A stretch of DNA of 64,000 nt from Candidatus Altiarchaeota archaeon (GTDB taxonomy: Archaea; Altiarchaeota; Altiarchaeia; IMC4; SCGC-AAA252-I15). Below the pieces are notes generated by a model. That model worked only from the letters and a program-made list of their open reading frames with translations, made no database searches and had not been told where the DNA came from. The stretch covers positions 5,550 through 69,549 of the forward strand of contig JAZDMS010000040.1 in the NCBI GenBank assembly GCA_043800705.1, in the 5' to 3' direction. The translations under genes were made by a program, and so were the position numbers. Positions 16,511-47,311 of this stretch are shown here, in pieces (positions within the stretch are counted from its first letter, which is position 1; each line of letters opens with the position of its first letter).

Positions 16511-16606
16511 ATGAGAATCCGCGACATCGGCGGCGAATTCACGCTAATCAACCGACTCGTATACGACATAACCAATAAACCCCCCGCGACCATGGGGTGG
16601 GCGTGA
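16511..16606 (+). pseudogene. Chimeric relic ORF: thiL 5' end fused to guaA 3' end
   Basis: MRIRDIGGEFTLINR|LVYDITNKPPATMGWA*. The first half parallels thiL (MKIKDIGGEFALINRV at 20148) and the second half parallels the guaA end (NRVVYDITNKPPATMEWE* at 15704). Confidence 0.75.
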
Positions 16607-16609
16607 ACG

Positions 16610-17803
16610 TCAAAGCCCGGTTATTCTGTATCTGATATTCTTTCCGGCAGTTCCGTAACCCGCTTCGAATTCCAGCCTAGCCTCTTTATCCAGGTATCTG
16701 CCGGATATAATCCCTTTATCCTGCCATTGCGTGCCATTACCCTCAGCATCGAAGGAGACCGCGTAGTCATACTCTCCCCCCTTTACCCCACCGCAGCCGG
16801 GCCCTGAAGCCATCCCGTTCAACTGGAATACCATAGTCTTTGTGAACCTGACTACGGGCTTCTCGGCGAGATCCTGGTCCAGGAAAGTTCCCTCAGGCAT
16901 CATATCCCCGTAGCCCCTACCGCCAGTAATCCCCTGGTTCTGGGGCGGGTCCATGTCGACCCCATCCATCATCAAATTAGTTATCCTGCAATCGACTCCG
17001 TTCTTTGAGATTTTAAGGGTTGACCCGTCCAACTCCCCCTCTTCCCCCCCAAACACCAGGGTGAATACCGATTTGTCCGGCTCCGATGAGCCGAAGAAGG
17101 AAATGGGCGCGATAGCCAGCCTATCGAAACCGTCGACCCTTACGACCTCCGTCGGATTCAGGGGGCTGAGACCCGTCACGGATGAAAAAGCGAGCAGGAA
17201 AAAGATTGATGCCCCAAACAGCATCCCCCCCGGAATCAGCCAACATAGGACAGCCTTAATAGCGCTCATCCTGCAGGTCTGACGAAGGATAAGCGTCAGC
17301 AGATAGAATGAAAAAATATGCGGGATATAGCTTACGACGATAGCCCCCATTCCAAAGACCGGCGATATGACCCTCTCCAAAATCCCCTGGATCAACGGCT
17401 GCACAACAGCGGCGATGAGGATATAAACCGGGAAATAAACCGACGCCATCATATAATAGAGCTCAGTGAACGTGCATCTTCCGCCAAGGATCCGTGCGAC
17501 AAGATACTCCCCTCCTGCAAAAATGAACGAGGCAATGAGGCCCATGATGGGATACCCGACCAGGCAGAAGATGAACATGAGGCCTACGATCACAAGGGGG
17601 CTCCCGGTTGCCAGCATCATGAGGGGCAGGGCAAACGCAGCAAACAATGACGCAATAAGGACGACTTCCACGCCTCTCGTCATGGATGCCCGAGGCAGCT
17701 GCCTGGAAATCAGGGCGGAGGGGTTTTTAAACAAAAGAACGGCTTTTTCGCGGAACCTCAATTCCACGCTCAAATCATTTGCAGAAACCGGCTCACCTTC
17801 CAC
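16610..17803 (-). CDS. Membrane protein (Yip1-like N-terminal TM domain plus C-terminal extracytoplasmic domain)
   Basis: 397 aa with 5 TM helices in the first ~215 aa, then a soluble beta-rich region. GC looks lower than the flanks by eye. Confidence 0.5.
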   Translation of the reverse strand: MEGEPVSANDLSVELRFREKAVLLFKNPSALISRQLPRASMTRGVEVVLIASLFAAFALPLMMLATGSPLVIVGLMFIFCLVGYPIMGLIASFIFAGGEYLVARILGGRCTFTELYYMMASVYFPVYILIAAVVQPLIQGILERVISPVFGMGAIVVSYIPHIFSFYLLTLILRQTCRMSAIKAVLCWLIPGGMLFGASIFFLLAFSSVTGLSPLNPTEVVRVDGFDRLAIAPISFFGSSEPDKSVFTLVFGGEEGELDGSTLKISKNGVDCRITNLMMDGVDMDPPQNQGITGGRGYGDMMPEGTFLDQDLAEKPVVRFTKTMVFQLNGMASGPGCGGVKGGEYDYAVSFDAEGNGTQWQDKGIISGRYLDKEARLEFEAGYGTAGKNIRYRITGL

Positions 17804-17906
17804 TGAATAATCTATCTGCGGGAATCCCTTAAATAATCCCTATATCATCCGATCCGTCAGAACAAGGATCAGCAAAGTCCGGTACGAAGTGTTGGCGTCC
17901 CTCACA

Positions 17907-19375: not shown

Positions 19376-19511
19376 ATGCCGGTATAGTATTACCCCGCAG
19401 GATAAAAAATCTCCAGCTTAAAAACCGCCCTCAAACGGGGGATTGATGCGTCGGATCCTTAGGCGACGACGCTCTTGACACATATGAAGCCAACGGAATA
19501 CGATAGAACGA

Positions 19512-20108: not shown

Positions 20109-20147
20109 GGTGTTTTATTCATCTCAGTACAATAAATGCAAGATAAC

Positions 20148-21092
20148 ATGAAAATCAAGGACATAGGCGGCGAGTTCGCCCTCATCAACAGGGTTGCTCG
20201 GCCTGGCGGGGCGGTCGTCGGAGTAGGCGACGACGCGGCGGTCCTGAAGTATACGAAGGAGCGGTATCAGCTTTTCACGACCGACATGCTCTGCGACGGC
20301 GATCATTTCCGCCGCGACTGGGCCAGCCCCGAACAGATAGGGATGAAGGCGATGGAGGTCAACGTCTCAGACATCGCAGCAATGGGCGGCCTCCCCACAT
20401 ACGCTGTCATCTCAATATCACTGACACATGACACGTCGGTCGAGTTCATGGACCGCCTCTACAAAGGCTTGTACCACGTCGCCGACAAATACGACCTCAA
20501 CATCGTCGGCGGAGACACCACGCACGCGGACATGATGGTCATAAACGTCTCAATGCTCGGAGAAGTGGAAAAGGACAGATTATGCCTGCGCTCAGACGCG
20601 AAGGTCGGCGACCTCATATGCGTCACAGGCGACCTCGGAAAAAGCGCCGCAGGCCTCGAACTTTTGAAGGGGGGAATGCGCGGCGAGCTCACAGCGTATC
20701 TGGAGCCGAAATGCAGGCTAAAGGAGGCCAGGAAAATCTCACACTATGCAAACGCGATGATAGACGTCTCCGACGGCCTGGCAAGCGAAGTCAACCACAT
20801 CTGCCATATGAGCAAGGTCGGGGGCCTCGTGAGAAAGGAGGACATACCCATATCCAAATCCACTATCGAATCCGCGCATAAGGTCGGCAAAGACCCGTAC
20901 GATTACGCATTGAACGGGGGGGAAGACTTCGAGCTCGTGTTCACCGTCCCTCAAGCGTACCTGGGGAAGGTGGCGCACATAGATTGCCCGGTCACTGTCG
21001 TCGGAGAGATAGTGGAGAAAAGGCAGGGTTTGACGATTGAGTCGTGCGGCAGGAAAAAGCCCCTGAAGGGAGGATACGACCACTTCAAGTAG
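20148..21092 (+). CDS. thiL: Thiamine-monophosphate kinase
   Basis: MKIKDIGGEFALINRV..GDDAAVL.....TTDML..G.HF... has the AIR-synthase-like fold pattern. Start chosen at the second ATG, supported by the relic copy at 16511. Confidence 0.85.
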   Translation: MKIKDIGGEFALINRVARPGGAVVGVGDDAAVLKYTKERYQLFTTDMLCDGDHFRRDWASPEQIGMKAMEVNVSDIAAMGGLPTYAVISISLTHDTSVEFMDRLYKGLYHVADKYDLNIVGGDTTHADMMVINVSMLGEVEKDRLCLRSDAKVGDLICVTGDLGKSAAGLELLKGGMRGELTAYLEPKCRLKEARKISHYANAMIDVSDGLASEVNHICHMSKVGGLVRKEDIPISKSTIESAHKVGKDPYDYALNGGEDFELVFTVPQAYLGKVAHIDCPVTVVGEIVEKRQGLTIESCGRKKPLKGGYDHFK

Positions 21093-22771: not shown

Positions 22772-23497
22772 ATGGTAGTGAACATCGTCGTGACCGGCAA
22801 GGTCCCTGACAATCCAACCATCATCGAAGCGTTCCCGAGCAGGGGATACGTCAGCACCATAGCAGGCAACCACCTCATCCGCCAGGAGAAGATGGAACAG
22901 ATCGGCTACATAGAGTCCGACAAGCTCGACGCCATCGCAGTCGTCCACGACGGCAAGCCCATGCACCCCATACGGATATACTCGAAGGGCGACCTGGTCG
23001 TCCTGTTCTCCGAGCTGATAATCCCCCTCAACCTCACACACGAGTTCAGCACCGAAGTCATAAACTGGTTCAAGAAGATCAAGCCGAAGAAGGCGATCCT
23101 CCTGGCAAGCATCCCCGGGGTCGAGACCAGCAAGGAGCATGAGATATTGGCCGTGTCCACCGACGGGCAGATGATCGAGAAGATCAAGGCGTTGAAGATC
23201 AAGCAGATGAACGAGGGCGTCCTCACCGGGATGAGCTCGAGCCTGATGATAAAATGCTGCTGCTTAGAAATACCAGTCACGTCTCTGATGGTGGAGACGA
23301 CCTACATACCCGACGTGCTCGCGGCGGCGAGCCTCATGAAGATGCTAAGCGACATCCTCGGCCTTACCGTCAGCATAGAGGAGCTAACGAAGGCGGGCCA
23401 CGACATCGAGGAGAAGTTCCGCGAAAACCTCGAACAGATGAAGATCGGCCAGGAAAACTTCAAAGAGATGCACCAACAATTGCCAATGTACAGATAG
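22772..23497 (+). CDS. PAC2-family (proteasome assembly chaperone-like) protein
   Basis: ..IIEAFPSRGYVSTIAGNHLI....IGYIES......V.V..G....PIRIY...DLVVLFSE..IP... is a typical PAC2/COG1938 layout. The start is uncertain (22727 or 22772). Confidence 0.65.
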   Translation: MVVNIVVTGKVPDNPTIIEAFPSRGYVSTIAGNHLIRQEKMEQIGYIESDKLDAIAVVHDGKPMHPIRIYSKGDLVVLFSELIIPLNLTHEFSTEVINWFKKIKPKKAILLASIPGVETSKEHEILAVSTDGQMIEKIKALKIKQMNEGVLTGMSSSLMIKCCCLEIPVTSLMVETTYIPDVLAAASLMKMLSDILGLTVSIEELTKAGHDIEEKFRENLEQMKIGQENFKEMHQQLPMYR

Positions 23498-23637
23498 CGG
23501 TCTTCCGTCTATCGCCCTGGCAAACGGTCCCGTCTTGGGCCTTGTTTGCGGCATGGGCTTGTTGCGGCGTCAGCCATCCATCAGAGAGACTGAGGCCTGA
23601 GGCCGAATGTCTCTCATTCGCCGGCCTTAGAAGGCCG

Positions 23638-23685
23638 CAGGAGAACTTCAAGGAAATGCACCAGCAGCTGCCGATGTACCGCTGA
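23638..23685 (+). pseudogene. Relic second copy of the last 15 codons plus stop of the PAC2-family gene
   Basis: QENFKEMHQQLPMYR* is encoded again 143 bp downstream of the live stop. There are 11 nt differences, all synonymous or stop-for-stop. Confidence 0.7.
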
Positions 23686-23742
23686 CCCCATGAACCGGCC
23701 GGGGCGCTGTCTTTATTTTCCTGTCCTCGTCGAATATGTATT

Positions 23743-25631: not shown

Positions 25632-25831
25632 GTGGCGGACATCCGGAAGTGGCTTCTTGGATCGACGCGCAGGTGGCTCCGGCGCGGTTCTCGCCCCCGC
25701 ACCCCCACAAGCACAGTCCACTGAAGTTATGGCTGCTGCCTTCCGGCCCTGACCAGATTCCTAAAATAGACCATCCAGTGAGACGAAGGCTCACGGTTCC
25801 GCACCGGACCCGCACGGCAACCCAAGACTCG

Positions 25832-25901
25832 CCTCCCGGCATTCAGCCCCGCCTAAGACGATTTGCGGCAACAGGCTACGCCTACCAGCCCGGCCTAGTC
25901 C
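25832..25901 (+). repeat. 70-bp direct repeat, copy 1
   Basis: CCTCCCGGCATTCAGCCCCGCCTAAGACGATTTGCGGCAACAGGCTACGCCTACCAGCCCGGCCTAGTCC matches 65/70 positions of the copy at 27402. Confidence 0.85.
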
Positions 25902-25979
25902 ACCGGTCAATGTATACGCAAAATCAGATTAAAAAACCAACCTCTCTCGCTCTTATACCTGGAAAATAATTTTTGTATT

Positions 25980-27374
25980 ATGTCCCCCATTATTCGTGTT
26001 CTCTTCGGCAAATCGAAAGGAAGATTTTTTCTGTTCATGCTATCCCTGCTGTCTGCTTTTATCGTTGTCGGCCAAGCGTCAGCCACCGAAGTCATTGTTG
26101 TCGGCAGGGAGCCGGCCACCAAGGTCATTCTTGTCGGCGGGGCGTCAGACAGGGAGCTTAAGGACTGCTGGGATAGCGGATACGCGCCCGAAAGGGTCTC
26201 ATGCTATGCGAGGTATGCTTTCGAAATGGACGATCCCGGAATATGCGATCAAAGCCCCTATCATAGGTTTGACCGGGATCCATGTTTTAAGCTCTTAACA
26301 ACGTCCTTGAAAAACAACACTCCGTGCGCAAGCATGAGGCGCGGGAATTCCCAAGCATTGTGCTATCGGATCATGTCCGTCTCAGACGACGGCGCACTCG
26401 CAGCATCGGTCCTCGGCAATTTCTCGGCCCCTGAAGACTGCGGTGTAGATTGCATGTCCCGCATCGCCGTTTTGATGCAAATGCCGGAAATCTGCAATAC
26501 GATGATGTTCAGTCGCGATTCCTGTTTTGCTGAAGTCGCGATTAGGCTAAACGATTCTGGCGTGTGCGAAAGGATGCTAGGAAACAGGGGTCGTTGCTAT
26601 TCCGCGATGGCTATGAGGCTCGGTAACATTTCATTCTGCGACAAGATTGAAACGCCTGACCTAAGGCTCGGCTGCCAGATTGAAATGGCTGTGTGGGCCG
26701 GTGACGCGTCAATCTGCCCTAAGGTCGCTGGCATTAACGTCTCCCGCGGCGACGAATGCTTCATGAAGCTTGCATTGGGGCTGGGGGACGCCTCCTTATG
26801 CGGTAACATATCCTTACATCCCGGGGGAAAATTCCTTAAGAATGATGCTAGCAGGGACAACTGCTTCGAGGAGGTTGCCTTGAGGCTGAGGAACGAATCC
26901 GTCTGCAAGAACATCGAAGGCGAGAAAGATTGGTGCATTGCAAGAATAGCAAAGGACTATGCCATGTGCGAGAATTTAGAGGGCCCATGCCAGGTATACG
27001 TCTGCATGTCCCGTTTGGATGGGGTGAAAATATCCAATCCGGCTCCCAGCGATTGCGAGATCTATCGCACCCCCCGGGCCATAGTCACCGTAACCTACAA
27101 CATCAGGATTTTATTACTGGTCATAAGCATATTCGTAGCGGCTCTATATTGTCTTGCACAAACCGCGAAAGAGTTGATTTCGTCCCGGAAGGCGGATAGA
27201 AGACCGGATATCAAAGCCTTGGCAAAGAAAATGATCCTGTTCGTCCTGATTTTGGCGGCATTAAACATCCTCGCCTATGCCTACGTATCCATCTATCTCG
27301 CATATGAGCCTCCGACGACCGCCGCCGCAAAATTCAGCGAAATGAAATTTTTTATGGAGGGAGGAGCAATTTGA
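25980..27374 (+). CDS. Secreted, C-terminally anchored protein built of about 10 tandem Cys-pair modules
   Basis: Signal/TM at the N-terminus and two TM helices at the C-terminus. The modules look like C[FY]xxhAhxLxDxShCxxh (e.g. CFAEVAIRLNDSGVCERM, CFEEVALRLRNESVCKNI, CFMKLALGLGDASLCGNI). Confidence 0.6.
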   Translation: MSPIIRVLFGKSKGRFFLFMLSLLSAFIVVGQASATEVIVVGREPATKVILVGGASDRELKDCWDSGYAPERVSCYARYAFEMDDPGICDQSPYHRFDRDPCFKLLTTSLKNNTPCASMRRGNSQALCYRIMSVSDDGALAASVLGNFSAPEDCGVDCMSRIAVLMQMPEICNTMMFSRDSCFAEVAIRLNDSGVCERMLGNRGRCYSAMAMRLGNISFCDKIETPDLRLGCQIEMAVWAGDASICPKVAGINVSRGDECFMKLALGLGDASLCGNISLHPGGKFLKNDASRDNCFEEVALRLRNESVCKNIEGEKDWCIARIAKDYAMCENLEGPCQVYVCMSRLDGVKISNPAPSDCEIYRTPRAIVTVTYNIRILLLVISIFVAALYCLAQTAKELISSRKADRRPDIKALAKKMILFVLILAALNILAYAYVSIYLAYEPPTTAAAKFSEMKFFMEGGAI

Positions 27375-27401
27375 CTGATACCACGGACGAGACAAAGCGT
27401 C

Positions 27402-27471
27402 CTCCCGGCACTCAGCCCCGCCTAAGACGATTTGCGGCGGCAGGCTGCGCCTGCCAGCCCGGCCTAGTCCG
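27402..27471 (+). repeat. 70-bp direct repeat, copy 2
   Basis: It has five transition differences from copy 1 and lies exactly 1570 bp downstream. It contains a perfect hairpin GGCAGGC-TGC-GCCTGCC that copy 1 lacks. Confidence 0.85.
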
Positions 27472-27492
27472 CTCAGAAAATATGCTGGGCTT

Positions 27493-37279: not shown

Positions 37280-37400
37280 AGATAGGATATGGGAATAAGG
37301 ATATTATACCGTCCATCCGAGCTCAGCCCTTTCTTGCGAAGAATCCGGAAAGCTGCGCTTTCTGTCGCCGCGGAACTGCGTTCCGCGTAATCGCTAGCGG

Positions 37401-37457
37401 AAAGAAACATATTCGGTTGATATGTGCATGTTTGTCCATCAGCAGCTACCCTTGTCG
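37401..37457. repeat. 57-bp direct repeat, copy 1 (period 90 bp)
   Basis: AAAGAAACATATTCGGTTGATATGTGCATGTTTGTCCATCAGCAGCTACCCTTGTCG matches 54/57 positions of the copy at 37491. Confidence 0.9.
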
Positions 37458-37486
37458 CAAACTTTTCTTTTGTAAAGAAAAGTTTG
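37458..37486. other. Perfect 13-bp AT-rich hairpin between the two 57-bp repeats
   Basis: CAAACTTTTCTTT-tgt-AAAGAAAAGTTTG. Confidence 0.85.
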
Positions 37487-37490
37487 ACCA

Positions 37491-37547
37491 AAAGAAACAT
37501 ATTCGGTTGATATATGCATATCTGTCCATCAGCAGCTACCCTTGTCG
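37491..37547. repeat. 57-bp direct repeat, copy 2
   Basis: It has three substitutions relative to copy 1 and overlaps the 3' half of the C/D sRNA candidate on the minus strand. Confidence 0.9.
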
Positions 37548-37584
37548 TCACTGGTCGGACTACTTCGCTGTCATCACATGAACA
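37523..37584 (-). ncRNA. Candidate C/D box sRNA
   Basis: The minus strand reads uguucau-GUGAUGA(C)-cagcgaaguagu(12)-CCGA(D')-cca-GUGACGA(C')-caaggguagcug(12)-CUGA(D)-uggaca. It has the canonical 12-nt spacers and a possible 6-bp terminal stem (UGUUCA/UGGACA with one G-U). It is intergenic. Confidence 0.5.
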
Positions 37585-37778
37585 ATTATACTAAGCATAC
37601 TGGCTATATATCCGGAACAGTGGCCTCATTTTGCCCCAGTGCTAACCTTCCCCTCCTCCTTGAACATTATCCGAACGCTTCGCCGCTTTTATACTATTCC
37701 TCCAATAACTAAACCTATTCAGGAGGGGGGGTGAATAACACTACCTCTCTGATAAGTCAAATTGAGGTGAAAAGAAAA

Positions 37779-37985
37779 ATGGCTGACATATGGGGAGAAG
37801 TTGGAACATCCGCTGGAAAGCTATGGACCGCATTGAACAATGGAAAGCCCGCAACCTTGGCTGAAGTCAAGAAAAAAACAGGGCTCGACGACAACATGAT
37901 GGCTATGGCCATCGGATGGCTGGCCCGCGAAGAAAAAGTAATCATCGACCGCAAAGGCGCAGTAGTCTCGGTCAAGCTAAAATAG
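37779..37985 (+). CDS. Small winged-helix protein (DUF2582-like)
   Basis: MADIWGEVGTSAGKLWTALNNGKPATLAEVKKKTGLDDNMMAMAIGWLAREEKVIIDRKG. GAGGTGA lies 8 nt upstream of the ATG. Confidence 0.6.
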   Translation: MADIWGEVGTSAGKLWTALNNGKPATLAEVKKKTGLDDNMMAMAIGWLAREEKVIIDRKGAVVSVKLK

Positions 37986-38019: not shown

Positions 38020-39186
38020 ATGCGCATAGCAGTATTCTCATGGGAGACGCTAAATTCCATACCTGTGGGGGGAGTAGCAGCCGTAGTCACGCAGCTGTCA
38101 GAGGCCCTTGCCGCAGGCGGTGACGAAGTCCACGTCTTCACGCGGATGTCGGAAGGCAAACAGGAGCATGAGCGGATAAACGGCGTCTGGGAACACCGCT
38201 GCCTCTGCCCCGCATGCGACGACTTCATCGAATACATGGACCACATGTGCGACAGCCTCGTCTCATGCTTCCACTGGGCAGAAGAGAAATACGGCAGATT
38301 CGACGCCGTACACGGCCACGACTGGCACGTCGTCAACGCCCTCGCGAACATAAAGGCGAACAAGGGCTACACGAACGTCGTCTGGACCGCCCACAGCACA
38401 GAATACGGCAGAAACGGCAACAACTACGCAGACAACTGGTTCTCGGCAAGGATCCGCCACAGGGAATGGCTCGGCGGCTACATATCCTGCAAAGTAACGA
38501 CAGTATCCCACATCATGCGAAACGAGCTCGGCCGCGAATACCAGATACCAGAGAACAAGGTCACAGTCATCTACAACGGCACCAACGTCAAAAAGTTCGA
38601 GGGCACCGTCGACGCAGGGCGGATAAAGGAAAGATACGGCTTCCACCCCCTCGACCCGCTGATACTCTTCTTCGGCCGCGTAGCCTACCAGAAAGGCCCC
38701 GACCTCCTATTGGAGGCGATGCCCGACGTCATACGCGAGTACTACAACGCAAGGCTCATCTTCGCAGGCTCGGGCGACATGATAGAACACCTCAAAGGCA
38801 GGGCAGCGTACCTCGGCGTGGGGGATAAGATGCGGGTCCTCGGCTACGTCAACGAGAAGACGAAGCTCGAGCTCTTCAAGTCATGCGACCTCGTCTGCGT
38901 CCCATCAAGGAACGAACCCTTCGGCATAATCACCCTCGAAGCCTGGGCCTGCGGCAAACCCGTCGTCGCATGCGACGTCGGAGGCCCATCCGAGATAATC
39001 GACAACTTCAGGACCGGAGTGAAGGTCAACATTACGCCGGAGAGCATCGCGTGGGGGATAAAATACCTCCTCGGCGACCGAAGCGGCCAAAGCCTGATGA
39101 AGATGGGCGCAGCCTGCCGCAAAGAGGCCGAAAAATACGACTGGAGAGAGCTCGCAAAACAATACCAGGCAGTATACCGGGCATAG
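38020..39186 (+). CDS. glgA: Glycogen synthase-like glycosyltransferase (GT-B, archaeal GlgA/GT5-GT4 type)
   Basis: MRIAVFSWETLNSIPVGGVAAVVTQLSEALAAGGDEVHVFT (K/N-x-GG motif), and C-terminal ..PSRNEPFGIITLEAWACGKPVVA..VGG.... Confidence 0.65.
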   Translation: MRIAVFSWETLNSIPVGGVAAVVTQLSEALAAGGDEVHVFTRMSEGKQEHERINGVWEHRCLCPACDDFIEYMDHMCDSLVSCFHWAEEKYGRFDAVHGHDWHVVNALANIKANKGYTNVVWTAHSTEYGRNGNNYADNWFSARIRHREWLGGYISCKVTTVSHIMRNELGREYQIPENKVTVIYNGTNVKKFEGTVDAGRIKERYGFHPLDPLILFFGRVAYQKGPDLLLEAMPDVIREYYNARLIFAGSGDMIEHLKGRAAYLGVGDKMRVLGYVNEKTKLELFKSCDLVCVPSRNEPFGIITLEAWACGKPVVACDVGGPSEIIDNFRTGVKVNITPESIAWGIKYLLGDRSGQSLMKMGAACRKEAEKYDWRELAKQYQAVYRA

Positions 39187-39226
39187 GAGTGGATAAACTA
39201 TAATGACCGCCTTCTTTTTGCCGAAT

Positions 39227-39844
39227 TTATGCCTTCAATATCCCCAAAAGATGCTGTTTAACGGCATCTATGTCCCTTTTTAGATGTCCCTTAGCCTTCA
39301 GGGACTCCAGATCTTCGATGACTGATTCGAGTTTTTCCCGAAGATCATGCTGGGTGACTCTTCTCTTGAAGTACTCGTAGTCAAACCTCCCGAGGTGAGT
39401 CTGGGAAAGAATCACTGACATGCTGCCTATTTCATCCGATTCGGAACCTTTGATCGCGAGTTTGGACGCCGCTAAATCCTCAGCTGAGATGAAATTCACA
39501 GCGACGCCTTCAAACTCCTCAGTTTGTCTGCGTCTCCATGCCTCATCGTCGAATTCGAACCCGTCCACCTTTACCCAGAAACCCGCCTCCCCTGCATCAG
39601 ACCTGAAAACAGTGTAGGAGTTACCCAGGAATTCCCTGAAGGATTTGCCCTCGACCTGCGAGAAACCCGCATCTTCAAGGGATTAAAAAAGGGAATCCTT
39701 TACCGTAGATCTGTCCAATGCGACCTCCAAGTCGAACGTCGCCATTGGCGTCCCATATTTTACGCTTGCCAAGCCGCCGATGACGAGATATCTAACGCAC
39801 TCTTCCTCTAAGAGCCGACCTAAGCTCCGAAGCAAACTCCCCAT
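39227..39844 (-). pseudogene. Nucleotidyltransferase-fold protein interrupted by an in-frame TAA
   Basis: My translation from the ATG at 39844 gives MGSLLRSLGRLLEEECVRYLVIGGLASVKYGTPMATFDLEVALDRSTVKDSLF*SLEDAGF...VDGFEFDDEAW.., continuing in frame into the 113-aa track ORF. The stop at 39683-39685 abuts a T6/A6 run. Confidence 0.55.
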
Positions 39845-39982
39845 CCTGGCCATCTTCCCTCAGCCTGTCGAACTCGGCGAGCCTCCTGCGCCAATCACAT
39901 CTTCCTGCCATCTCAAGGCATCGAAGAAGCCGCATCCGCCGACGATCCATAAGATAATACCTGCCTAAACCGAAATAAAAAG

Positions 39983-41254
39983 TCAAACCCCATTTTTCGG
40001 TTTTTTCACGGTCTTTTCGGCCTTTTTCCCGGATCCTCCGTTTTCGAGGTTGTATCTGACCACCTTCTCCTTGAAATCCATTATCGCCGCGTGGTAGTTG
40101 AGGCCCGCGTCGAACGGGTTGCCGTGGTGGCTGAAGTACTCGTGGACGGAGCCGTCGCCCATCCCCTTCGTGCACATGTAGTAATAGTGGTCGCTTATCT
40201 GGAACATCTTCCACACCTTCATCATCTCCGGGTTCTTGGAGGCCCTCACGTCGTTTTCCATCTCCTTCAGCCTGGAGAAGTTCAAATGCTGCATGTGGTT
40301 GCCGAGCCATGCGCTGGCGTCCCGCTCCATGTCAGCCCAGCTGACTGTCTCATACCAGGGGACCGTGATCTCCCCCCTCGGATAATACCTGTCCGCGACC
40401 TCGCTCGGCGTGTTGAACTCCAGGTTCTGCTTCTCCAGTATCTTATGCGGCATCGCATCCAGGAAGTGGAATATGCCAGTGTCCTCCCACTGGTGTTCGC
40501 CGAAGGTCTCATAGTCCATGAAGATGTTGATCGTGTCCTCGGCCGACCAGCTCAGCCAGTCCGCATACTTCTCCGCGGAAAGCGGCCAACCCGGCCACCA
40601 CTTCGCGCTGAAACGGTATCCGACGTCGTCGGAGAGCTTGTAATTCCTCAAAAGGACCTTCAGCTTCCCCCCCTTCCTCGTATAGACGAAATTAGGGCTT
40701 CTCCACCCGTCCAAGACCCTCTCGATCCCCTCGGTGAGTATGGCCTTGAACCCCATCTCCTCAGCCTCCTTCGCGATCGTGTCGTGGTACAGGAGCTCCG
40801 TGTTCCTGAACACCTTCGGCTTCTGGCCGAGGTAGTCCTTCACCATCTGCTGGTGCTCCAATACCTGCTCCCTGAACTCCTCCCTCTGCTCGAAGAGGCT
40901 CGCCAAGGAATGGTACCTGGTCTCGTTGATGAACTCGCAGCAGCCGGACTTCCCCAACTGCCTGAAAAGGTCCAAAAGGTCCGGCTCCCACCTCTCCATC
41001 TGCTCTAAAATGGAACCGGAAAGCGAATACGAGACCTTGAACTTCCTGTTCTGGCCTTTGAGGCGGTCGATGTTGGCCATGATGTTCTTCGTCGCAGGCC
41101 AATAACACTTCTTCGCCACCTTATGCAAAGTCCACTCATTGAGGCCGTTGTCGAAATAATAGTCCTCTAGGCCGTTCTTCGGGACCCCATTCGGCCAGAA
41201 CCACTTCAGACGAAACGGCTGGTGGACTTGAAAATATAAGCAGACGGATGTCAT
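39983..41254 (-). CDS. Glycoside hydrolase family 57 protein (alpha-amylase/glucanotransferase type)
   Basis: N-terminal MTSVCLYFQVHQPFRLKWF.., ..FMDYETFGEHQWE.. (catalytic region pattern), ..W.GN..Q. Confidence 0.8.
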   Translation of the reverse strand: MTSVCLYFQVHQPFRLKWFWPNGVPKNGLEDYYFDNGLNEWTLHKVAKKCYWPATKNIMANIDRLKGQNRKFKVSYSLSGSILEQMERWEPDLLDLFRQLGKSGCCEFINETRYHSLASLFEQREEFREQVLEHQQMVKDYLGQKPKVFRNTELLYHDTIAKEAEEMGFKAILTEGIERVLDGWRSPNFVYTRKGGKLKVLLRNYKLSDDVGYRFSAKWWPGWPLSAEKYADWLSWSAEDTINIFMDYETFGEHQWEDTGIFHFLDAMPHKILEKQNLEFNTPSEVADRYYPRGEITVPWYETVSWADMERDASAWLGNHMQHLNFSRLKEMENDVRASKNPEMMKVWKMFQISDHYYYMCTKGMGDGSVHEYFSHHGNPFDAGLNYHAAIMDFKEKVVRYNLENGGSGKKAEKTVKKPKNGV

Positions 41255-41394
41255 ATCACTCCCCCCGCTTTATTCGGCCCCTCTTTCTTTTTCGCCAGCG
41301 TTTTTCTTTCTGGGAGAGAAAGAAAAAGGCTGGGCTTGAACCACTTCAACCTGAACGGCTGATGGACTTGAAAGTATAGGCAGACTGAAGTCAT
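41251..41394 (-). CDS. 47-codon upstream ORF whose first 19 codons duplicate the GH57 N-terminus; its stop overlaps the GH57 start
   Basis: MTSVCLYFQVHQPFRLKWFKPSLFLSLPERKTLAKKKEGPNKAGGVI*. The TGA overlaps the ATG at 41254 (ATGA). It contains a perfect 10-bp hairpin at 41301-41327. Confidence 0.4.
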   Translation of the reverse strand: MTSVCLYFQVHQPFRLKWFKPSLFLSLPERKTLAKKKEGPNKAGGVI

Positions 41395-41559
41395 AACACA
41401 ACCCCCTCACGGCCTAGATGACAGATGCTGAACGAATATATCACCAATACACCCCCTAAAAATTCCCCCTAAAAACGACTGTAGAATCATTAGGCGGACG
41501 GATATAAAAGGAGAAGATTGCTTTTCGGCAGTTTTACGCCTATTGGGCCTTGTAGGCTT

Positions 41560-42885
41560 TTAAAATACGTATCCGAGCGATTTGAGCGCATCCAGTTCGT
41601 TGGGGTTCGCGGCCGTTTCGTGTTGCGTCATGTTCGAGTGGCGCGTTAGGGCGTCCGCCAGAGCCTTTTCCACTGCGGGATATTTGCCTATGAGGTCGTT
41701 TTTTTCTTCGGGGCCGTCTTTGAGGTCGTAGAGGTGGTTTTTGTCGGATTTGGTGTGGACGTATAGGTATCTGCCGTCAGTTATGCCCGCTACGGCATCG
41801 TTTGTGGTGCCGTATCCTTCGATGATCTCATATCTCCGGCGGTCATGGAAGATGTCGCCTCCTTGATAGCCTTCAGGGACGGTTATGTTCAGCATCGTAA
41901 GGACGGTGGGTGCCAGGTCGATCAGCCCGACGGGCTCCTGCACCCTGCGCCCCCGGCCGTTGAGGGGGTCGTAGATTATTAGGGGTATGCGGAAGACGCT
42001 TTGGGTTATCCTCGAATGGCCTATGTGGTTGTGTTCTCCGAGGGATTCGCCGTGGTCTGCGGTGACGACAATAATTGTCCTGTCCATGATCCCTTCGTCC
42101 TCCAGGGTCTTGACTATGGCGCCGACCTGTTCGTCGCCGAATCGCACGCCCATATCATATGCGTCATCCACCTCTTCGAGGTCTTCCTTGGCGTATTCCC
42201 GGTCCGGCCATTCGCTTAAGCTCATGTTGAGGCTGCCGTTGATCCCCCTATCGAACATGGATTTGTATTTGGGGTCCTGGGCGTACGGCGCATGCGTCGC
42301 GAGATAGTGGGCGTATATGAAGAATTTGCGGCCTTTTTTCCTTTCGATCATGCTTTTTGCGTGCTCTGTCAGGTTCCGGTCGTTGTTCAACTTCGTCGAG
42401 AGGATCATACGCACGTACTCCTGGAATCCCTGGCCGTAGTTGAGCGGCGCGCTTATGAATCCGTTCGAGAAGAAGCCGCCGGTCGCGTAGCCCTCGTAGC
42501 TTAGGCTTTCCGCGAACGTTGTCTCCTGGTCAGGCAGCCTGTTGTCGGCGATGTCGGGGGATCCGTTTAACGAGTAGGCATATGTCCTGTGAACGGAGGG
42601 ATATTTGGAGGTGAAGATGGTGGCGACAGACGGCTTCGTCCATACCCCCTGGGTGAAAGCCCTGTCGTAGACGATCCCTTTTTCGCAGAGCCTGTCTATG
42701 TTAGGGCTCGTGTTCCTGTAATACCCGTAGCATCCGAGGTGGTCGGGCCTGAGGGCGTCGATGACTATTACCACCACATTCATCCCAGCATTCCTCCCCG
42801 GGGCGGGCTCTTCCGCCCGCTGGCCTAGGGCATATGCGGCGATCAGAATCGCAGCCGCAATAAAGGCGAATATCCCCCTGCGCAT
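41560..42885 (-). CDS. Sulfatase-like hydrolase/transferase (alkaline-phosphatase superfamily), secreted
   Basis: N-terminal TM/signal, VVIVIDALRPDHLGCYGY, ..VTADHGE..GEH. The position of the Cys/Ser-x-P-x-R formylglycine motif reads WTKPSVATIFTSKYP, with Thr at the nucleophile position. Confidence 0.7.
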   Translation of the reverse strand: MRRGIFAFIAAAILIAAYALGQRAEEPAPGRNAGMNVVVIVIDALRPDHLGCYGYYRNTSPNIDRLCEKGIVYDRAFTQGVWTKPSVATIFTSKYPSVHRTYAYSLNGSPDIADNRLPDQETTFAESLSYEGYATGGFFSNGFISAPLNYGQGFQEYVRMILSTKLNNDRNLTEHAKSMIERKKGRKFFIYAHYLATHAPYAQDPKYKSMFDRGINGSLNMSLSEWPDREYAKEDLEEVDDAYDMGVRFGDEQVGAIVKTLEDEGIMDRTIIVVTADHGESLGEHNHIGHSRITQSVFRIPLIIYDPLNGRGRRVQEPVGLIDLAPTVLTMLNITVPEGYQGGDIFHDRRRYEIIEGYGTTNDAVAGITDGRYLYVHTKSDKNHLYDLKDGPEEKNDLIGKYPAVEKALADALTRHSNMTQHETAANPNELDALKSLGYVF

Positions 42886-43003
42886 GCTACCTTATGCTTT
42901 TGTCCTATTATATCTTGTATTTTATCCCGGATTCCAAATAATTGTCATGGTTGCCTCGGACCGATTGGGCGCTTTGAGCTATACTTGTGTGAAGCCGTCT
43001 GAG

Positions 43004-44842
43004 ATGGGTTTGGAGGCCGCCAAGCAGTATGAGTGGCTTTTGCCCAACAGGCTCGGTGGGTATTCGAGCTCGAGCGTATTGGGCCTTAATACGCGGAAGT
43101 ATCACGGTCTTTTGGTGGCTTCGAGGGGGAATCTTGAGGCCAGGCGGGTGGTTTTGGAGAGTTTGACGGAGGAGCTGGTCGCAGGCAACGATGTGTACCC
43201 GCTCGGCGTCACGGAGTATTCGGACACCGTCGATTCCAGGGGCGTCCAGCGGCTGAAGAGGTTCACGAGGGGCGTGGAACATGTGAAGTTCGAGTACGAC
43301 GTCAACGGGACCACTTTGGTGAAGATAATCTACTCGGTGCCGGGGATGAATGCGCTCATAGTCTCGTACGGGGTCAGGAACAACTTCGGCCAGACCGTCA
43401 CGTTGAATGTCCGCCCGCTCGTCAATTCGAGGGCCATCCACGAGTTGAATCCTCCGGGGAGGGATTTCAAGAGCGTCATCTACGATGGGAAGATCCTGGG
43501 CTCCGGCTGCAACGGCGACAATCTGATGTTCGTCAGCGACGACATGGCTCCGCGCTCCGAGGGCGTATGGTACAAGAACGTCAGGTATTCAATGGAGGTG
43601 GAAAGGGGGGAGGCATCGGACGAGGACGTCTACTGTCCCGGCATACTTGAACTCAGGGTCGCTTCCTTCAGCACGCGGGAGGCGGAGCTGTTCGTCCTGT
43701 TGGCGGACGGGGAAGTCGATCCTGTCAAGACGTTCGCGGGGATACATGAGCCGCAGTTTCAGAAGTTCCAGCCGGACCCGGTGCATATCCTTGAGTCGGC
43801 AGCGGAGTCGTTCATAATCGACATCGCAGACATGAAGAGCGTTATCGCGGGTTATCATTGGTTCGCGGACTGGGGCAGGGACACGATGATATCCCTCCCA
43901 GGACTCACCTTGGTGAACAGGAACTTCCGGGATGCGGAGGAGATATTCGCAAGGTGGATAGACAATATCGACGGGGGACGGATTCCGACGAAGTTTACCG
44001 TCAACGGCCCGGAATACTACGACTTCGACGGCACCCTTTGGATGCTGGACCGTTTGGGCGATTATTGCAGGCGCGTCGGCCCCGACCGGGCGGCGAGGTT
44101 CCTCGCGCCGAGGTGGCATCTTCTGAAGAGCATAGTCCCGTACTACCTGGGCCTTCTGGAGAACGGCCTCATAAAACACAAGGCTGGGACGTGGATGGAC
44201 ACCCTGGAGCGGAGCAATGCTGTGGAGGTCCAGGCCCTGTGGTATAATGCGATCTTCGTCCTGGAGGACGTCTCCAGGATGGTCGGCGACCCGTTGGACG
44301 GGGAGAAGCTGAAGGCGGACTTCGAAGCCTCATTCATGGACAAATACTGGAACGGGAATTACCTGAGGGACTGCCTCGAAGACGATTCGATCAGGCCCAA
44401 TCAGGTCATCGCAATCTCACTTGGCCACAGTCCCGTCCCTGACAGGGACGCCAAGGAGGTGCTGAAGATAGCGAGGGAGGAGCTTCTGAGTCCGTGCGGC
44501 CTCAGGACCCTTGACAAAAACGACCCGAAATACTGTCCGAAATACGCGGGCGGGGTCTCGGAGCGGGCTAAGGCGTACCATAACGGGACCGTGTGGCCGT
44601 GGCTCATCGGGCCGTATGCGAAGGCCTGCACGAATCTATACGGTGAAAAGGGGAGGAAACTCGCGTTCGAAGCAGTGAAGCCGGTCCTTTCTAGGCTGAC
44701 CGACGGGTGCATTTGCACGTTGGCGGAAATATACGATGCCGAGCCGCCTCATGCTGCGAGGGGTGCCGCGAGCCAGGCGTGGAGCGTCGCTGAGGTGTTG
44801 AGGGCGTGTTTGGAGGATGCGAAGGTCGACAGGGTGGAGTAG
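43004..44842 (+). CDS. Glycogen debranching enzyme (amylo-alpha-1,6-glucosidase, archaeal GDE type)
   Basis: Start chosen at MGLEAAKQYEWLLPNRLGGYSSSSVLGLNTRKYHGLLVA. Also has ..AGYHWFADWGRDTMISLPGL.., ..EVQALWYNA.., ..AYHNGTVWPWLIGPY... Confidence 0.8.
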   Translation: MGLEAAKQYEWLLPNRLGGYSSSSVLGLNTRKYHGLLVASRGNLEARRVVLESLTEELVAGNDVYPLGVTEYSDTVDSRGVQRLKRFTRGVEHVKFEYDVNGTTLVKIIYSVPGMNALIVSYGVRNNFGQTVTLNVRPLVNSRAIHELNPPGRDFKSVIYDGKILGSGCNGDNLMFVSDDMAPRSEGVWYKNVRYSMEVERGEASDEDVYCPGILELRVASFSTREAELFVLLADGEVDPVKTFAGIHEPQFQKFQPDPVHILESAAESFIIDIADMKSVIAGYHWFADWGRDTMISLPGLTLVNRNFRDAEEIFARWIDNIDGGRIPTKFTVNGPEYYDFDGTLWMLDRLGDYCRRVGPDRAARFLAPRWHLLKSIVPYYLGLLENGLIKHKAGTWMDTLERSNAVEVQALWYNAIFVLEDVSRMVGDPLDGEKLKADFEASFMDKYWNGNYLRDCLEDDSIRPNQVIAISLGHSPVPDRDAKEVLKIAREELLSPCGLRTLDKNDPKYCPKYAGGVSERAKAYHNGTVWPWLIGPYAKACTNLYGEKGRKLAFEAVKPVLSRLTDGCICTLAEIYDAEPPHAARGAASQAWSVAEVLRACLEDAKVDRVE

Positions 44843-44843
44843 T

Positions 44844-46694
44844 CTAGCACCTGACGTTCCTGACGGCGAGCTGGTGCGCTTTTACGTAGTTCTTGATGAG
44901 CATCTTCCAGTCGGCGAGGCCTGCGAGCTCCTTCGCGTTCATCCTTCGGCGTGTGAGTTCCTTCTTCTCCAGGCCTATTATATCGTACATCTTGTTGTAG
45001 AGTTCGTCTACTACTTTGTCGTATTCTATGCCGTCGAGCTTGAGGACCTGGATTCCGTCTCCTTTGCCGTCGATGAACTGGCCGAATCCTGCGAGGTCGG
45101 TCGTGATGGCGAGCGTCCCCTGCGCCGCGGTCTCAAGGGGAGTGTATCCCCATGGCTCGTAGTAGGATGGGAATACGCCGACGTCGCATGTGAGGGTGCC
45201 GGGGTTGTAGTCCAGGGATATGAGCCTGTCCGCCGACGAGAGGTAGGCGGGGTAGAATATGACCTTGACCTTGTCTTCCTCCCTGTTAAGAAGCTCGTTG
45301 CGGCGGAATGCCTGGATTATGCTGTCGCTGTCCAGGCTGTAGTTGAGTTCGAACGCGCACAGGGGCGCGCTCCCCCCCTTCTTCTCCGCGAAGTGGGCGG
45401 TCAGCTTCCTTATCAGCGTCAGGAATTCCTCGCTGAAGACGTTGCCGTCGGGCTTCTGCCCCTTGATGATAAGCTCCAGCAGGTTGTCCTTTATCTCGGG
45501 GAGGCTTCCGTCGATCTGGTCGTGGATCTCCTCATAGAGGGCCTTGTTCTTCAGGACCTGCATTTCCTCGCCCCTGGTGTCGGTGGGGACGAATATGAAC
45601 GCTACTACGTGCTTCTTGGAGTTTTCGGCCTTCAGTTTCTTGTTCAGCTTGCCAAGGGCGTCTATGTAGACGTCGATGCCCTTGTTGTGGTACTCGTATC
45701 TGCCTGAGAGGAACATGCTGCGGATGTTCATCAGGTCCATGTAGTAGTATCTGCAGAAGTACGAGATGAGGAATTCCCTCATCCTGATCCTGTATTTGTG
45801 CCTCATGACGGCGAGCTCCTCCATCTCCGGGAACTTGCTCGTGTCCAGGCCGTTGAAAAGGAGGACTTCGGGCTTCTTGCCGAGGATGTAGGCTGCCTCC
45901 CTGCCCGTTATCTCGCTGACTGTGGTGAAGACGTCTGCGCTCTTGACGCAGGCGACCTCTGTCGAGTGCTTGTCCTCGCACCTGTACTGCCTTGCAAGCT
46001 CGATCGTTGCGGATTCCTTCTTCCTCAGCCCTTCGTTGACCATCCCGTAAAGGTCGTGGCCGGAGCCGCTTATGTTTCTGCCGAGCATGGTGGCGTGGGT
46101 CGTGAACACGGTCCCGACCGGAATCTTGTTCTTGTGTATGTGGAGTATCGCGAAGCCGGAGAGCCACTCGTGGAAATGGCCCACGACGCCGCTGCCCTTG
46201 TATGGGGCCTCCTTCATCAGCTCCTCGATGAGCCTGCCGACGGCGGTCGACCAGAGAAGGGGGTCGTTGAACCATGCGTCGCTGCGTATGGAGTCGATCT
46301 CGTAATCTTCCCAGAGGTGCTTCTTGAGGTCGTTGACGTTGGCCTGATATCCGCGGACGTCGAGCAATATCACATGCGGCCTGCCGGCGGTCAGCCAGGT
46401 CCCAAAATGGCATTTGATGCCTTCGGATTCAAGCCTCTTAAAGGCCTTGGCGAGGCCTGCCGGCGGCTGGGATTCGTCGAATTCCAGCCTTGATTTGGCT
46501 AGGTCGTAGTATCCGACGGCACAGTATCCTTCGCCGTACTCTTCGACCATGCGTGCGGCCTTCGACTTTATGACGGTGTATATTCCCCCTACTTTGTTGC
46601 AGACTTCGTAGGAGGCCTCGAAGACGTAATCTACCCCCTTCATAGGATATAGCATTACCTCGTGGAGCTTATATACTAGCTTTTTTATATTCAT
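44844..46694 (-). CDS. Glycogen(starch) synthase of the eukaryote-like GT3 family
   Basis: FEASYEVCNKVGGIYTVIKSKA.. and ..GHFHEWLSG.., ..FTTHATMLGR.., ..CDVGVFPSYYEPWGYTPLE.. match my memory of GT3 glycogen synthase motifs. Confidence 0.75.
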   Translation of the reverse strand: MNIKKLVYKLHEVMLYPMKGVDYVFEASYEVCNKVGGIYTVIKSKAARMVEEYGEGYCAVGYYDLAKSRLEFDESQPPAGLAKAFKRLESEGIKCHFGTWLTAGRPHVILLDVRGYQANVNDLKKHLWEDYEIDSIRSDAWFNDPLLWSTAVGRLIEELMKEAPYKGSGVVGHFHEWLSGFAILHIHKNKIPVGTVFTTHATMLGRNISGSGHDLYGMVNEGLRKKESATIELARQYRCEDKHSTEVACVKSADVFTTVSEITGREAAYILGKKPEVLLFNGLDTSKFPEMEELAVMRHKYRIRMREFLISYFCRYYYMDLMNIRSMFLSGRYEYHNKGIDVYIDALGKLNKKLKAENSKKHVVAFIFVPTDTRGEEMQVLKNKALYEEIHDQIDGSLPEIKDNLLELIIKGQKPDGNVFSEEFLTLIRKLTAHFAEKKGGSAPLCAFELNYSLDSDSIIQAFRRNELLNREEDKVKVIFYPAYLSSADRLISLDYNPGTLTCDVGVFPSYYEPWGYTPLETAAQGTLAITTDLAGFGQFIDGKGDGIQVLKLDGIEYDKVVDELYNKMYDIIGLEKKELTRRRMNAKELAGLADWKMLIKNYVKAHQLAVRNVRC

Positions 46695-46702
46695 TCTTTG
46701 TC

Positions 46703-47311
46703 ATGGACGACTTCATGAAGAGGAACCGCAGGTTCAGGGACGGATTCGAGGATTTCATGGGCGACGACTTCTTCGCCGAGTTCGAGGGGGAGTTCCGGAG
46801 GATGCAGGATCACATGAGCCACCTCTTCGACGAGGCGCTGAGGAACAACGAGACGGACCATGTCAGGAGGTACGTCTACGGCTTCACGATGCATACCGGC
46901 CCCGACGGGAAGCCGGTCCTGGAGGAGTTCGGCAACGTCCCCAGGCACGGCGAGGACCAGATACCCGGCGAGAGGGAGCCGATGGTCGACGTCATAGACG
47001 GCAGGGACGAGGTCACCGTCATCGCGGAGCTGCCCGGAGTCGACAAGAAGAACATAGACCTTAAGTCGGACGAGACGTCGCTGACGATATCAGTCCGCGA
47101 CCACGCCCGAAGGTACCACAAGGTCCTGGATATGCCGGGGGAGGTCGACCCCGAATCAATAAAGGCCCAGTACAAGAACGGCATACTCGAAGTCAAGCTG
47201 AAGAAGGCCAGGAAGAAGAACGGATCCAAGAGGATAAAGAACGGCATACTCGAAGTCAAGCTGAAGAAGGCCAGGAAGAAGAACGGAACCAAGAGGATAA
47301 AGGTCGAATAG
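46703..47311 (+). CDS. hsp20: Hsp20/alpha-crystallin small heat-shock protein with duplicated C-terminal strand
   Basis: ACD pattern: VDVIDGRDEVTVIAELPGVDKKNIDLKSDETSLTISV......Y.KVLDMPGEVDPESIKAQYKNGILEVKL. Confidence 0.85.
   Translation: MDDFMKRNRRFRDGFEDFMGDDFFAEFEGEFRRMQDHMSHLFDEALRNNETDHVRRYVYGFTMHTGPDGKPVLEEFGNVPRHGEDQIPGEREPMVDVIDGRDEVTVIAELPGVDKKNIDLKSDETSLTISVRDHARRYHKVLDMPGEVDPESIKAQYKNGILEVKLKKARKKNGSKRIKNGILEVKLKKARKKNGTKRIKVE
47177..47302 (+). repeat. Perfect-frame 63-bp tandem duplication inside hsp20 (2 x 21 codons)
   Basis: NGILEVKLKKARKKNG(S/T)KRIK is encoded twice. There is one nt difference (TCC/ACC) in 63. Confidence 0.95.

Follow-up and report, generated by a model that had tools for sequence, protein, structure and literature searches.

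In Escherichia coli, e14 and phage 21 carry a replacement gene end at icd. Insertion sequences of the IS1634/IS1549 type make direct repeats of variable length (8-514 bp), and this family is common in Euryarchaeota (PMC2266710). Among archaea, Ca. Altiarchaeum hamiconexum has the highest density of MITEs (miniature inverted-repeat transposable elements) in a published survey (PMC11602168). The intrastrand triplex motif of E. coli is built of a C-rich stem, a loop, a G-rich stem, a second loop and another G-rich stem, and in bacteria such motifs mark unusually variable loci by a mechanism that is unknown (Holder et al., 2015, PMC4666352). Here, we describe a family of small three-part hairpin elements that lie between displaced and intact copies of gene ends, in related genomes and in a 64,000-nt stretch of a Candidatus Altiarchaeota archaeon (GCA_043800705.1, contig JAZDMS010000040.1, positions 5,550-69,549 of the forward strand), hereafter the window. 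The window is a core chromosomal segment of an Altiarchaeota archaeon. The closest relatives of its GH57 gene belong to Altiarchaeota metagenome-assembled genomes (80-86% identity), and the relatives of its PAC2 gene are Altiarchaeota too.

A preliminary description of the window listed five local duplications, involving thiL and guaA, PAC2, GH57, an intergenic segment and hsp20, and proposed a single ongoing duplication or recombination process in which a small hairpin element might take part. All five are present in a self-comparison of the window. A wider scan added a sixth, of the 5' 70 nt of the signal recognition particle (SRP) RNA, and an older, decayed copy of a small RNA (sRNA) tail is also present at the intergenic site, at 37.4 kb. 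The six duplications measure 48-74 bp, with intervening DNA of 0, 33, 66, 140, 842 or 1499 bp. We find that a small hairpin element is involved in part of this pattern, and that the five cases are not manifestations of one process. Rather, the window holds a mix of three kinds of event: structured inserts, a microhomology junction and a partial RNA copy, and slippage. The junctions of the hsp20, thiL/guaA and SRP RNA cases lack a hairpin. For the hairpin-bearing duplications, namely the GH57 head, the sRNA tail (twice) and probably the PAC2 tail, we give about an even chance to the reading that they are junction scars of small structured inserts.

A three-part hairpin element between gene-end copies

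On one strand, each element consists of a pyrimidine arm, a loop, a purine arm, a linker and a mirror copy of the purine arm. On the other strand, running away from the intact gene, the order is pyrimidine tract, linker, pyrimidine arm, loop and purine arm. In 12/12 elements, the outlying third tract mirrors the hairpin arm beside it, with a match of 8-12 nt on one side only, and the mirror match is longer than the direct match in every one of them. When each element was compared with composition-preserving shuffles, P values ranged from 0.000 to 0.06. Loops within the hairpins span 0-5 nt. The second linker measures 3-10 nt in most elements and ~57-60 nt in L084, L007b and an older element of the window (L-numbers denote comparison loci: L001, L005, L007, L039, L081, L084, L162, L163, L167, L177, L180 and L182).

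The hairpins at GH57 and at 37.4 kb are the two best looped hairpins in the window, and, as the preliminary description had stated, both spacers contain an A/T-rich hairpin with the common core TTTCTTT..AAAGAAA. There are exactly two occurrences of this core in the 64 kb (0 expected), each of them within the spacer of a duplication, and 7 of the 11 window matches to the heptamers TTTCTTT/AAAGAAA fall within these two elements. Because the core is rare and confined to duplication spacers, the objection that it is common A/T-rich terminator sequence fails; the two hairpins are members of a three-part element family, not generic terminators. A search for further copies found the same three-part element in related genomes, between displaced and intact gene ends. 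We counted eight elements in ~237 kb of Altiarchaeota-type sequence (two each in the window, L005 and L007, and one each in L001 and L084), and two chance-like matches in 1.97 Mb of other loci. The window also has a third element (~37322-37409), older and degenerate, that becomes visible only by alignment with L162.

The elements recur at unrelated genes and in several genomes, and their polarity is constant. In every independent case of flank duplication, that is, at the GH57 head (window, L001 and L084), at the sRNA tail (a new and an old layer) and at both the head and the tail of a tRNA-Arg gene in L007, it is the displaced fragment that borders on the hairpin, and the mirror tract is turned towards the intact gene. 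This polarity is independent of the direction of transcription, which points to a process acting at the level of DNA. Elements are present or absent at orthologous sites: the GH57 site is without one in L162 and L163, as is the sRNA site in L163. The neighbours of GH57 and of the sRNA vary among relatives, so that the elements are associated with variable loci.

The bacterial TMECO/BoxC triplex motifs share the layout of pyrimidine stem, loop, purine stem, loop and mirroring purine stem, and likewise occur as dispersed copies at variable loci. The archaeal elements differ from them in that their stems are T/C and A/G, and thus A/T-rich rather than G/C-rich, in their host, and in that the triplex is predicted from the layout. 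In addition, 3-10 nt separate their second and third blocks, or ~60 nt where extra GC hairpins are present, compared with loops of 1-6 nt in the TMECO type, and they lie between displaced and intact copies of gene ends, which PMC4666352 does not report. Like insertions of IS1634/IS1549, the archaeal inserts are flanked by variable direct repeats of tens to hundreds of bp; unlike them, they measure only 33-140 bp, no transposase is seen in the window, and the old duplicates differ by synonymous changes only and end at gene limits. MITEs, too, are short, non-coding, palindromic or bounded by inverted repeats, and orthologous sites may have or lack them. In contrast to MITEs, the window copies are not near-identical, the flanking repeats measure 25-74 bp (270 bp in L180) in place of a short, fixed target duplication, and the asymmetric third tract gives the elements a polarity. 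Elements that bring a substitute gene end (e14 and phage 21 at icd, and elements integrating at tRNA genes) resemble the window cases in that the gene end is present twice, with silent differences and a repeat that extends to the gene limit, whereas the hairpin cases have no integrase or cargo, affect both ends of one tRNA gene and involve far smaller inserts. Slippage and microhomology junctions fit hsp20 (63 bp, AAG) and thiL/guaA (11-nt ATCAACAGGGT) but leave the hairpin-bearing cases, in which the unit is not simply repeated, unaccounted for.

Gene ends present in two copies

The gene identities given for the surroundings of the repeats are from Pfam. At GH57 (39983-41254, minus strand), the order from the native promoter side is displaced head, hairpin, linker, mirror tract, ribosome-binding site and intact gene. 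The intact-side copy of the repeat (41193-41266, minus strand) comprises the functional 5' head of the gene and a 12-nt ribosome-binding region, such that the repeat ends 12 nt before the ATG. The displaced head with its ribosome-binding site (41333-41406, minus strand) is 81% identical to it. Between the two lies the three-part element (41267-41332, minus strand), with arms at 41295-41311 and 41317-41333, the core TTTTTCTTTCT/AGAAAGAAAAA, the linker CGCTGGCG and, facing the intact gene, the mirror purine tract AAAAAGAAAGA (plus strand TCTTTCTTTTT at 41283-41293). The displaced head begins a 47-codon upstream open reading frame (ORF), which runs from 41394 down to 41251 and whose TGA overlaps the real ATG.

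The displaced head, the same hairpin and the mirror tract are also found in L001 (86% GH57 identity) and L084 (83%). In L039 (80%), a decayed head copy and a linker remnant are left; in L182 (86%), fragments of a decayed head are present but no hairpin; and the sites of L162 (84%) and L163 (82%) are clean. Three species thus have the arrangement intact, two have it in decay and two have none. With intact copies in three species and relics in two more, the GH57 head duplication is old rather than recent. Five neighbouring genes order the relatives as GH57 does, and the clean sites are nested among carriers in a distance tree. Hence, either the insertion is older than the group and was twice lost with precision, a loss that the flanking repeats would make easy, or this site has been a target repeatedly.

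Truncation of the displaced head falls at codon 21 in the window, at codon 22 in L084 and at codon 13 in L001, whereas the hairpin edge, CCTTTTTC, does not vary. In all three species, the upstream ORF stays open across the element; it stops at ATGA in the window and L001 and at a TAA 1 nt before the ATG in L084. A programmed frameshift joining this ORF to GH57 was considered and rejected, as the shift would have to be -1 in the window and L001 but +1 in L084. We also rejected horizontal transfer specific to GH57, which left no signal (neighbouring genes rank the relatives identically), and gene conversion keeping the two copies alike, which is at odds with near-saturated synonymous differences, including some within codon 14. 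Nor does the insert look like a spliced bulge-helix-bulge intron: the GH57 and PAC2 folds contain no such motif and have modest z-scores.

The repeat at 37.4 kb had been described as a 57-bp intergenic segment. The repeat is real, but the DNA is not anonymous, since it holds the last 21 nt of a predicted C/D box sRNA gene (37527-37581, minus strand; C GTGATGA, D' CCGA, C' GTGACGA, D CTGA; guides CAGCGAAGTAGT and CAAGGGTAGCTG). The boxes and the ~12-nt guides align to archaeal sRNA models, sR2 giving E=0.009; its score of 21.8 bits lies below the gathering value of 42, which is expected as such families are guide-specific. In L162 and L163, where it adjoins the Nop5 gene, the sRNA has hardly changed, and its boxes and both 12-nt guides are conserved. 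It is unannotated and lies between the genes for Nop5 (35549-36625) and a DUF2582 winged-helix protein (37731-37985); in the window, a DUF998 gene (36632-37279, minus strand) also falls between Nop5 and the sRNA.

Read outward from the sRNA, the site consists of the mirror tract, the linker, the hairpin and the displaced tail copy, beyond which lie the older element and the decayed tail copy. The intact-side copy (37491-37547, minus strand) covers the last 21 nt of the sRNA and 36 nt downstream, with the third tract AAAAGAAA at 37490-37497. The 33-bp insert (37458-37490) is a perfect palindrome with 13-bp arms, CAAACTTTTCTTT-TGT-AAAGAAAAGTTTG, followed by ACCA, and its DNA fold has z = -4.8. 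The displaced sRNA tail unit (37401-37457, minus strand) is 95% identical to the intact-side copy, non-coding DNA included. In the older layer (37308-37409), a decayed copy of the sRNA tail (~37308-37330) is accompanied by a long-linker three-part element with a short CTTTCTT/AAGAA hairpin, the hairpins GGAAAGC-TGC-GCTTTCT and CGCGGAAC-TGC-GTTCCGCG, the linker CGCTAGCG and the third tract GAAAGAAAC. Since this older layer is common to the window and L162, while L163 has neither layer, the same sRNA gene end was hit twice. A composite unit bounded by the hairpins at 37.4 kb and 41.3 kb was rejected, as L001 has the GH57 element only, without the sRNA, and the ages of the events differ greatly.

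L007 is a single-cell genome in which both ends of a tRNA-Arg(TCG) gene, interrupted by an 86-nt intron, recur: the first 19 nt upstream, behind an element (19/19 identical), and the last 25 nt downstream, behind an element of opposite orientation. Because the sRNA unit is 95% identical even in its non-coding DNA and the tRNA head is 19/19 identical, the sRNA-tail and tRNA-head cases look like fresh target duplications. In the same locus, 56 nt of the tRNA-Arg intron (13668-13723) are repeated directly 3' of the gene (13789-13844, 80% identical). L005 carries two three-part elements back to back at 745-855, in opposite orientation, 9 nt apart and without flank repeats, which look like a pair of elements without cargo. 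A scan of a viral collection found the three-part architecture on three contigs. IMGVR_UViG_3300029620_000416 (8982 bp, 57% G+C, classed as viral) has two inverted elements (L177 6513-6555 and L180 282-308), one of which lies between 270-nt direct repeats (L180 3-274 and 465-741).

The PAC2 gene (plus strand, true length 241 residues, 3' end at 23497) closes with a functional tail (23450-23497, plus strand) that reads QENFKEMHQQLPMYR up to its stop codon and has a G+C content at third codon positions (GC3) of 0.60. Its last residues, MYR, within ...LPMYR, make up a C-terminus of the hydrophobic-Tyr-X (HbYX) type, as in proteasome-binding chaperones, which explains the strong constraint on the tail. 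There follows a structured insert of 140 bp (23498-23637, plus strand; fold z = -3.7), with terminal inverted repeats matching at 8/10 positions, CGGTCTTCCG ... CTTAGAAGGCCG, and a hairpin, GGCCTT-AG-AAGGCC, 1 nt from the displaced tail. That tail (23638-23685, plus strand) encodes the same 15 residues with 9 synonymous substitutions and ends in TGA instead of TAG. Its GC3 is 0.93, compared with 0.835 for the gene, as if the working tail, and not the displaced one, had come in with the insert. Both tails have a phenylalanine found in 0/30 relatives whose C-termini were compared. The PAC2 spacer has neither the A/T-rich core nor a clear third tract, and we regard the relation of this insert to the three-part family as probable, not certain. 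Two long hairpins elsewhere in the window (35390-35486 and 47811-47898, plus strand) are made of 7-nt periodic units, (CGGTTYT)n ... (RAAACTG)n. Their G.U pairs occur on the plus strand only, both lie just 3' of plus-strand genes, and the hairpin at 35390-35486 opens with the 11-mer TAGCGGTCTTC, the same 11-mer that opens the PAC2 insert after the stop codon.

In both protein-coding cases, the two copies differ in silent positions only, as the preliminary description had noted. For the GH57 head, the number of codons at which the displaced and the working copy differ is 8 (9 nt) in the window, 8 in L084 and 6 in L001, and the PAC2 tails differ at 8 codons (9 substitutions in 15 sense codons), in addition to their TAG and TGA stops; every one of these codon differences is synonymous. 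Under random placement of the substitutions, such an outcome has P < 5e-6 for GH57 in the window, < 5e-6 in L084, 1.5e-5 in L001 and < 5e-6 for PAC2. What had been concluded from it, that silent divergence marks an older duplicate, is doubtful, because a decaying spare copy should not show silent changes alone; the decayed copies of L039 and L182 give the picture of neutral decay. Furthermore, head similarities are crossed between species, the displaced head of the window being nearest to the working head of L001 (3 differences/38 nt) and the displaced head of L001 nearest to the working head of the window (4 differences/38 nt). In PAC2 and guaA, the repeats end exactly at the stop codon. Taken with the GC3 of the PAC2 tails, the silent-only changes, the repeat limits and the crossed similarities point to continued constraint on, or periodic use of, the spare copies, or else to a copy that may derive from another functional allele. 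This silent-only divergence is the most surprising result of the analysis and the main one left unexplained.

Duplications without a hairpin and the surrounding genes

The functional tail of guaA (15645-15704, plus strand; gene 14181-15704, plus strand) holds ATCAACAGGGT, an 11-nt microhomology that it shares with the real thiL head (MKIKDIGGEFALINR, 20148-20192, plus strand; gene 20136-21092, plus strand). A chimeric 31-codon ORF (16511-16606, plus strand) joins a thiL-like head (16511-16552), at ATCAAC, to a copy of the guaA tail (16547-16606) that is 83% identical to the original. Both halves carry non-synonymous changes, among them the loss of the terminal EWE. The chimera is thus where it had been described, with a microhomology junction and no hairpin. 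Related genomes have the order thiE-guaA-thiL-(x)-PAC2, in which thiL overlaps the end of guaA or other genes intervene, and the window has 4.4 kb of low-GC3 accessory genes between guaA and thiL. Since the chimera runs head then tail, which is the order expected there, it may be the junction of a ~100-bp tandem duplication across the border of the guaA stop and the thiL start, formed at the 11-nt microhomology; the accessory genes would have been inserted later, on both sides of it. The segment 15705-20135 is a variable gene-insertion site, with a GC3 of 0.62-0.64 in four of the inserted genes and 0.72 in the DUF6498 gene, compared with 0.75-0.87 in core genes. A single imported block of 7 kb, from the chimera to the PAC2 tail, was rejected because PAC2 (GC3 0.835) and thiL (0.746) look native and only the accessory genes are low. 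The five genes of this segment encode DUF6498 (15718-16458, minus strand), a Yip1-like protein, a methyltransferase, a polysaccharide deacetylase and a 198-residue ORFan; in L081, guaA is adjacent to thiL. We likewise rejected a viral or defence origin for the inserted genes: PHROGs and NCBIfam gave no matches except for the sulfatase, which hit two PHROGs families of unknown function.

The SRP RNA gene (25633-25905, minus strand; Rfam) has a partial copy of its 5' 70 nt at 27381-27474 (minus strand), with an ORFan (25980-27374) between copy and gene. The two are 93% identical (25832-25901 and 27401-27470) and differ by five transitions. As two of these fall at conserved unpaired positions, the copy looks like a decaying fragment; the same structural alignment led us to reject compensatory changes. 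It would be a partial duplicate that an inserted ORFan has parted from the gene. The sequence GUCCGUG, which follows the copy, can pair with the copy's own 5' end. In hsp20 (46703-47311, plus strand), two 63-bp units of 21 residues (47174-47236 and 47237-47299, plus strand) stand in frame and in tandem across 47174-47299, with one mismatch (98% identity), no spacer and a 3-nt AAG microhomology. The final beta strand is present twice as a result, the terminal I-x-V motif is retained, and L163 has a single copy. The near-identical tandem repeat that had been described is real, has no hairpin and is ordinary replication slippage.

A uniform self-alignment scan for local direct repeats (35-150 bp, ≥78% identical, ≤2.5 kb apart) gave 5 in the 64 kb of the window (6 with PAC2), or 78/Mb, compared with ~23-24/Mb in two comparison sets, one of other Altiarchaeota loci (173 kb) and one of other loci from archaea and bacteria (1.97 Mb). 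The excess is about threefold (Poisson P ~0.005-0.02) and is to be discounted, as the window was picked for these repeats. At 20-45 bp, the window scan revealed no further real repeats.

Among the other genes mapped, a glycogen cluster (38020-46694) comprises a GT4 synthase (GT4 glycosyltransferase, 38020-39186), GH57, a glycogen debranching enzyme and a glycogen synthase. Compared with L162, L163, L084 and L039, the window has an inserted sulfatase gene (41560-42885, minus strand) that parts GH57 from the debranching enzyme, and L001 has a small TatA-like gene in its place. Near the start of the window, two tandem paralogous genes (939-1487 and 1585-2136) are 71% identical across 300 nt. A metagenome scan with a 597-residue window protein found no relative.

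Origin of the gene-end copies

In the model we prefer, a family of inserts spans Altiarchaeota-type genomes and includes palindromes with a pyrimidine arm, a purine arm and a mirroring third tract, a layout of the intrastrand-triplex type. Such an insert would land within the first or last 20-75 bp of a gene, and the carriers seen have that gene end twice, with the intact gene on the side of the mirror tract and the cut-off fragment abutting the hairpin. In young cases, the second copy would arise by insertion with a long, variable target duplication, as in IS1634/IS1549; in the old protein-coding cases, a diverged but functional gene end would have been imported together with the insert. Several observations weigh against this model. 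Scans of Pfam, PHROGs and NCBIfam found no integrase or transposase domain in any window protein tested, and the three elements of the window have different sequences, whereas copies from a recently active MITE family would be alike. Flank duplication was not detectable beside the elements of L005, L167 and L177, and the lengths of the gene-end duplications vary from 25 to 74 bp, reaching 270 bp on the viral-collection contig. Synonymous-only differences in the spare GH57 and PAC2 copies are not predicted by target duplication followed by decay, and repeats that end at the gene limit in PAC2, guaA and GH57 are unexpected for a mechanical target duplication. Finally, the source genome is represented by 64 kb.

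The duplications could instead have arisen in place, with no mobile element, if resident hairpin or triplex tracts stalled replication or broke and if template switching, or out-of-register joining with a sister chromosome or the DNA of a relative, then duplicated the gene end. It is the architecture that is conserved and not the sequence, each hairpin matching its own neighbouring tract, and events recur at the same gene ends, as such errors would have it; the third tract at the sRNA site lies inside the duplicated unit and may predate the new hairpin, and in E. coli triplex motifs are tied to variable loci, although no mechanism is known (PMC4666352). However, the empty orthologous sites have no hairpin at all, a simple tandem duplication would repeat the element too, which is not seen, and no templated route produces a mirror repeat, so we hold this origin to be possible but on the unlikely side. 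Several features would be expected of scars left by integrase-mediated integrative elements that carried a replacement gene end and were reduced to remnants flanked by attL/attR: the copies differ only in ways that preserve function, the repeat ends at the gene limit, the proximal PAC2 tail looks foreign in GC3 while the distal one fits its gene, the head similarities of the window and L001 are crossed, and one case, in L007, is at a tRNA gene. Yet no integrase is among the window proteins tested, the remnants measure 33-140 bp only, head and tail of the same tRNA are duplicated, unlike in classic integration, and the truncation point of the GH57 fragment differs among species, all of which makes such scars distinctly improbable.

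For GH57 alone, and compatibly with the other readings, head copy and hairpin might form a selected regulatory leader, in which a translated upstream ORF reads through the T-rich hairpin, ends at the real start codon and couples or attenuates expression of the enzyme. The open frame, the codon-level constraint on the head in all three species and a hairpin conserved as nucleotides while read in different frames are consistent with this; but the arrangement has decayed in L039 and L182, L162 and L163 do not have it, stop-poor purine and pyrimidine tracts and an ATGA start make open frames and overlaps likely by chance, and a leader gives no reason for the peptide to stay identical to the N-terminus of the enzyme, nor does it apply to RNA genes or PAC2. 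We think a leader rather improbable. Unrelated accidents or assembly artefacts that happen to share one window are very improbable: an excess of only about threefold in a window picked for it, and the lack of common junction features in hsp20, guaA/thiL and SRP RNA, speak for them, whereas the GH57 arrangement in independent assemblies of three species, the older sRNA layer common to L162 and the statistical specificity of the element motif largely refute them for the hairpin-bearing cases. A more speculative idea, to which we assign a low probability, is that the triplex-type hairpin marks the ends of segments swapped at gene borders between chromosome copies or related Altiarchaeota. Both versions of a gene end would then be used in turn and both selected, which we think unlikely in equal measure, and recombination would recognise structure, not sequence. 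That gene-end duplications of 50-75 bp should accompany such swaps whatever the cargo (0 bp to 1.5 kb) is similarly a long shot. Swapping would explain the silent-only divergence, the crossed head similarities and the pattern of presence and absence.

If the preferred model of structured inserts is true, a little-known archaeal phylum has structure-defined inserts that remodel gene borders without destroying genes. Some but not all of the duplications in this window would then come from a lineage-wide way of reshuffling gene borders. The elements would also be an archaeal counterpart to the bacterial triplex motifs, and would give the link between such motifs and instability a concrete footprint, in which the displaced fragment adjoins the hairpin and the intact gene adjoins the mirror tract. 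For annotation, short pseudo-starts and pseudo-ends near such hairpins should not be called genes, and the 37.4-kb repeat is to be read as part of a predicted C/D box sRNA. The silent-only divergence would mean either that short spare copies are functional, or that gene ends are exchanged between lineages far more than gene bodies.

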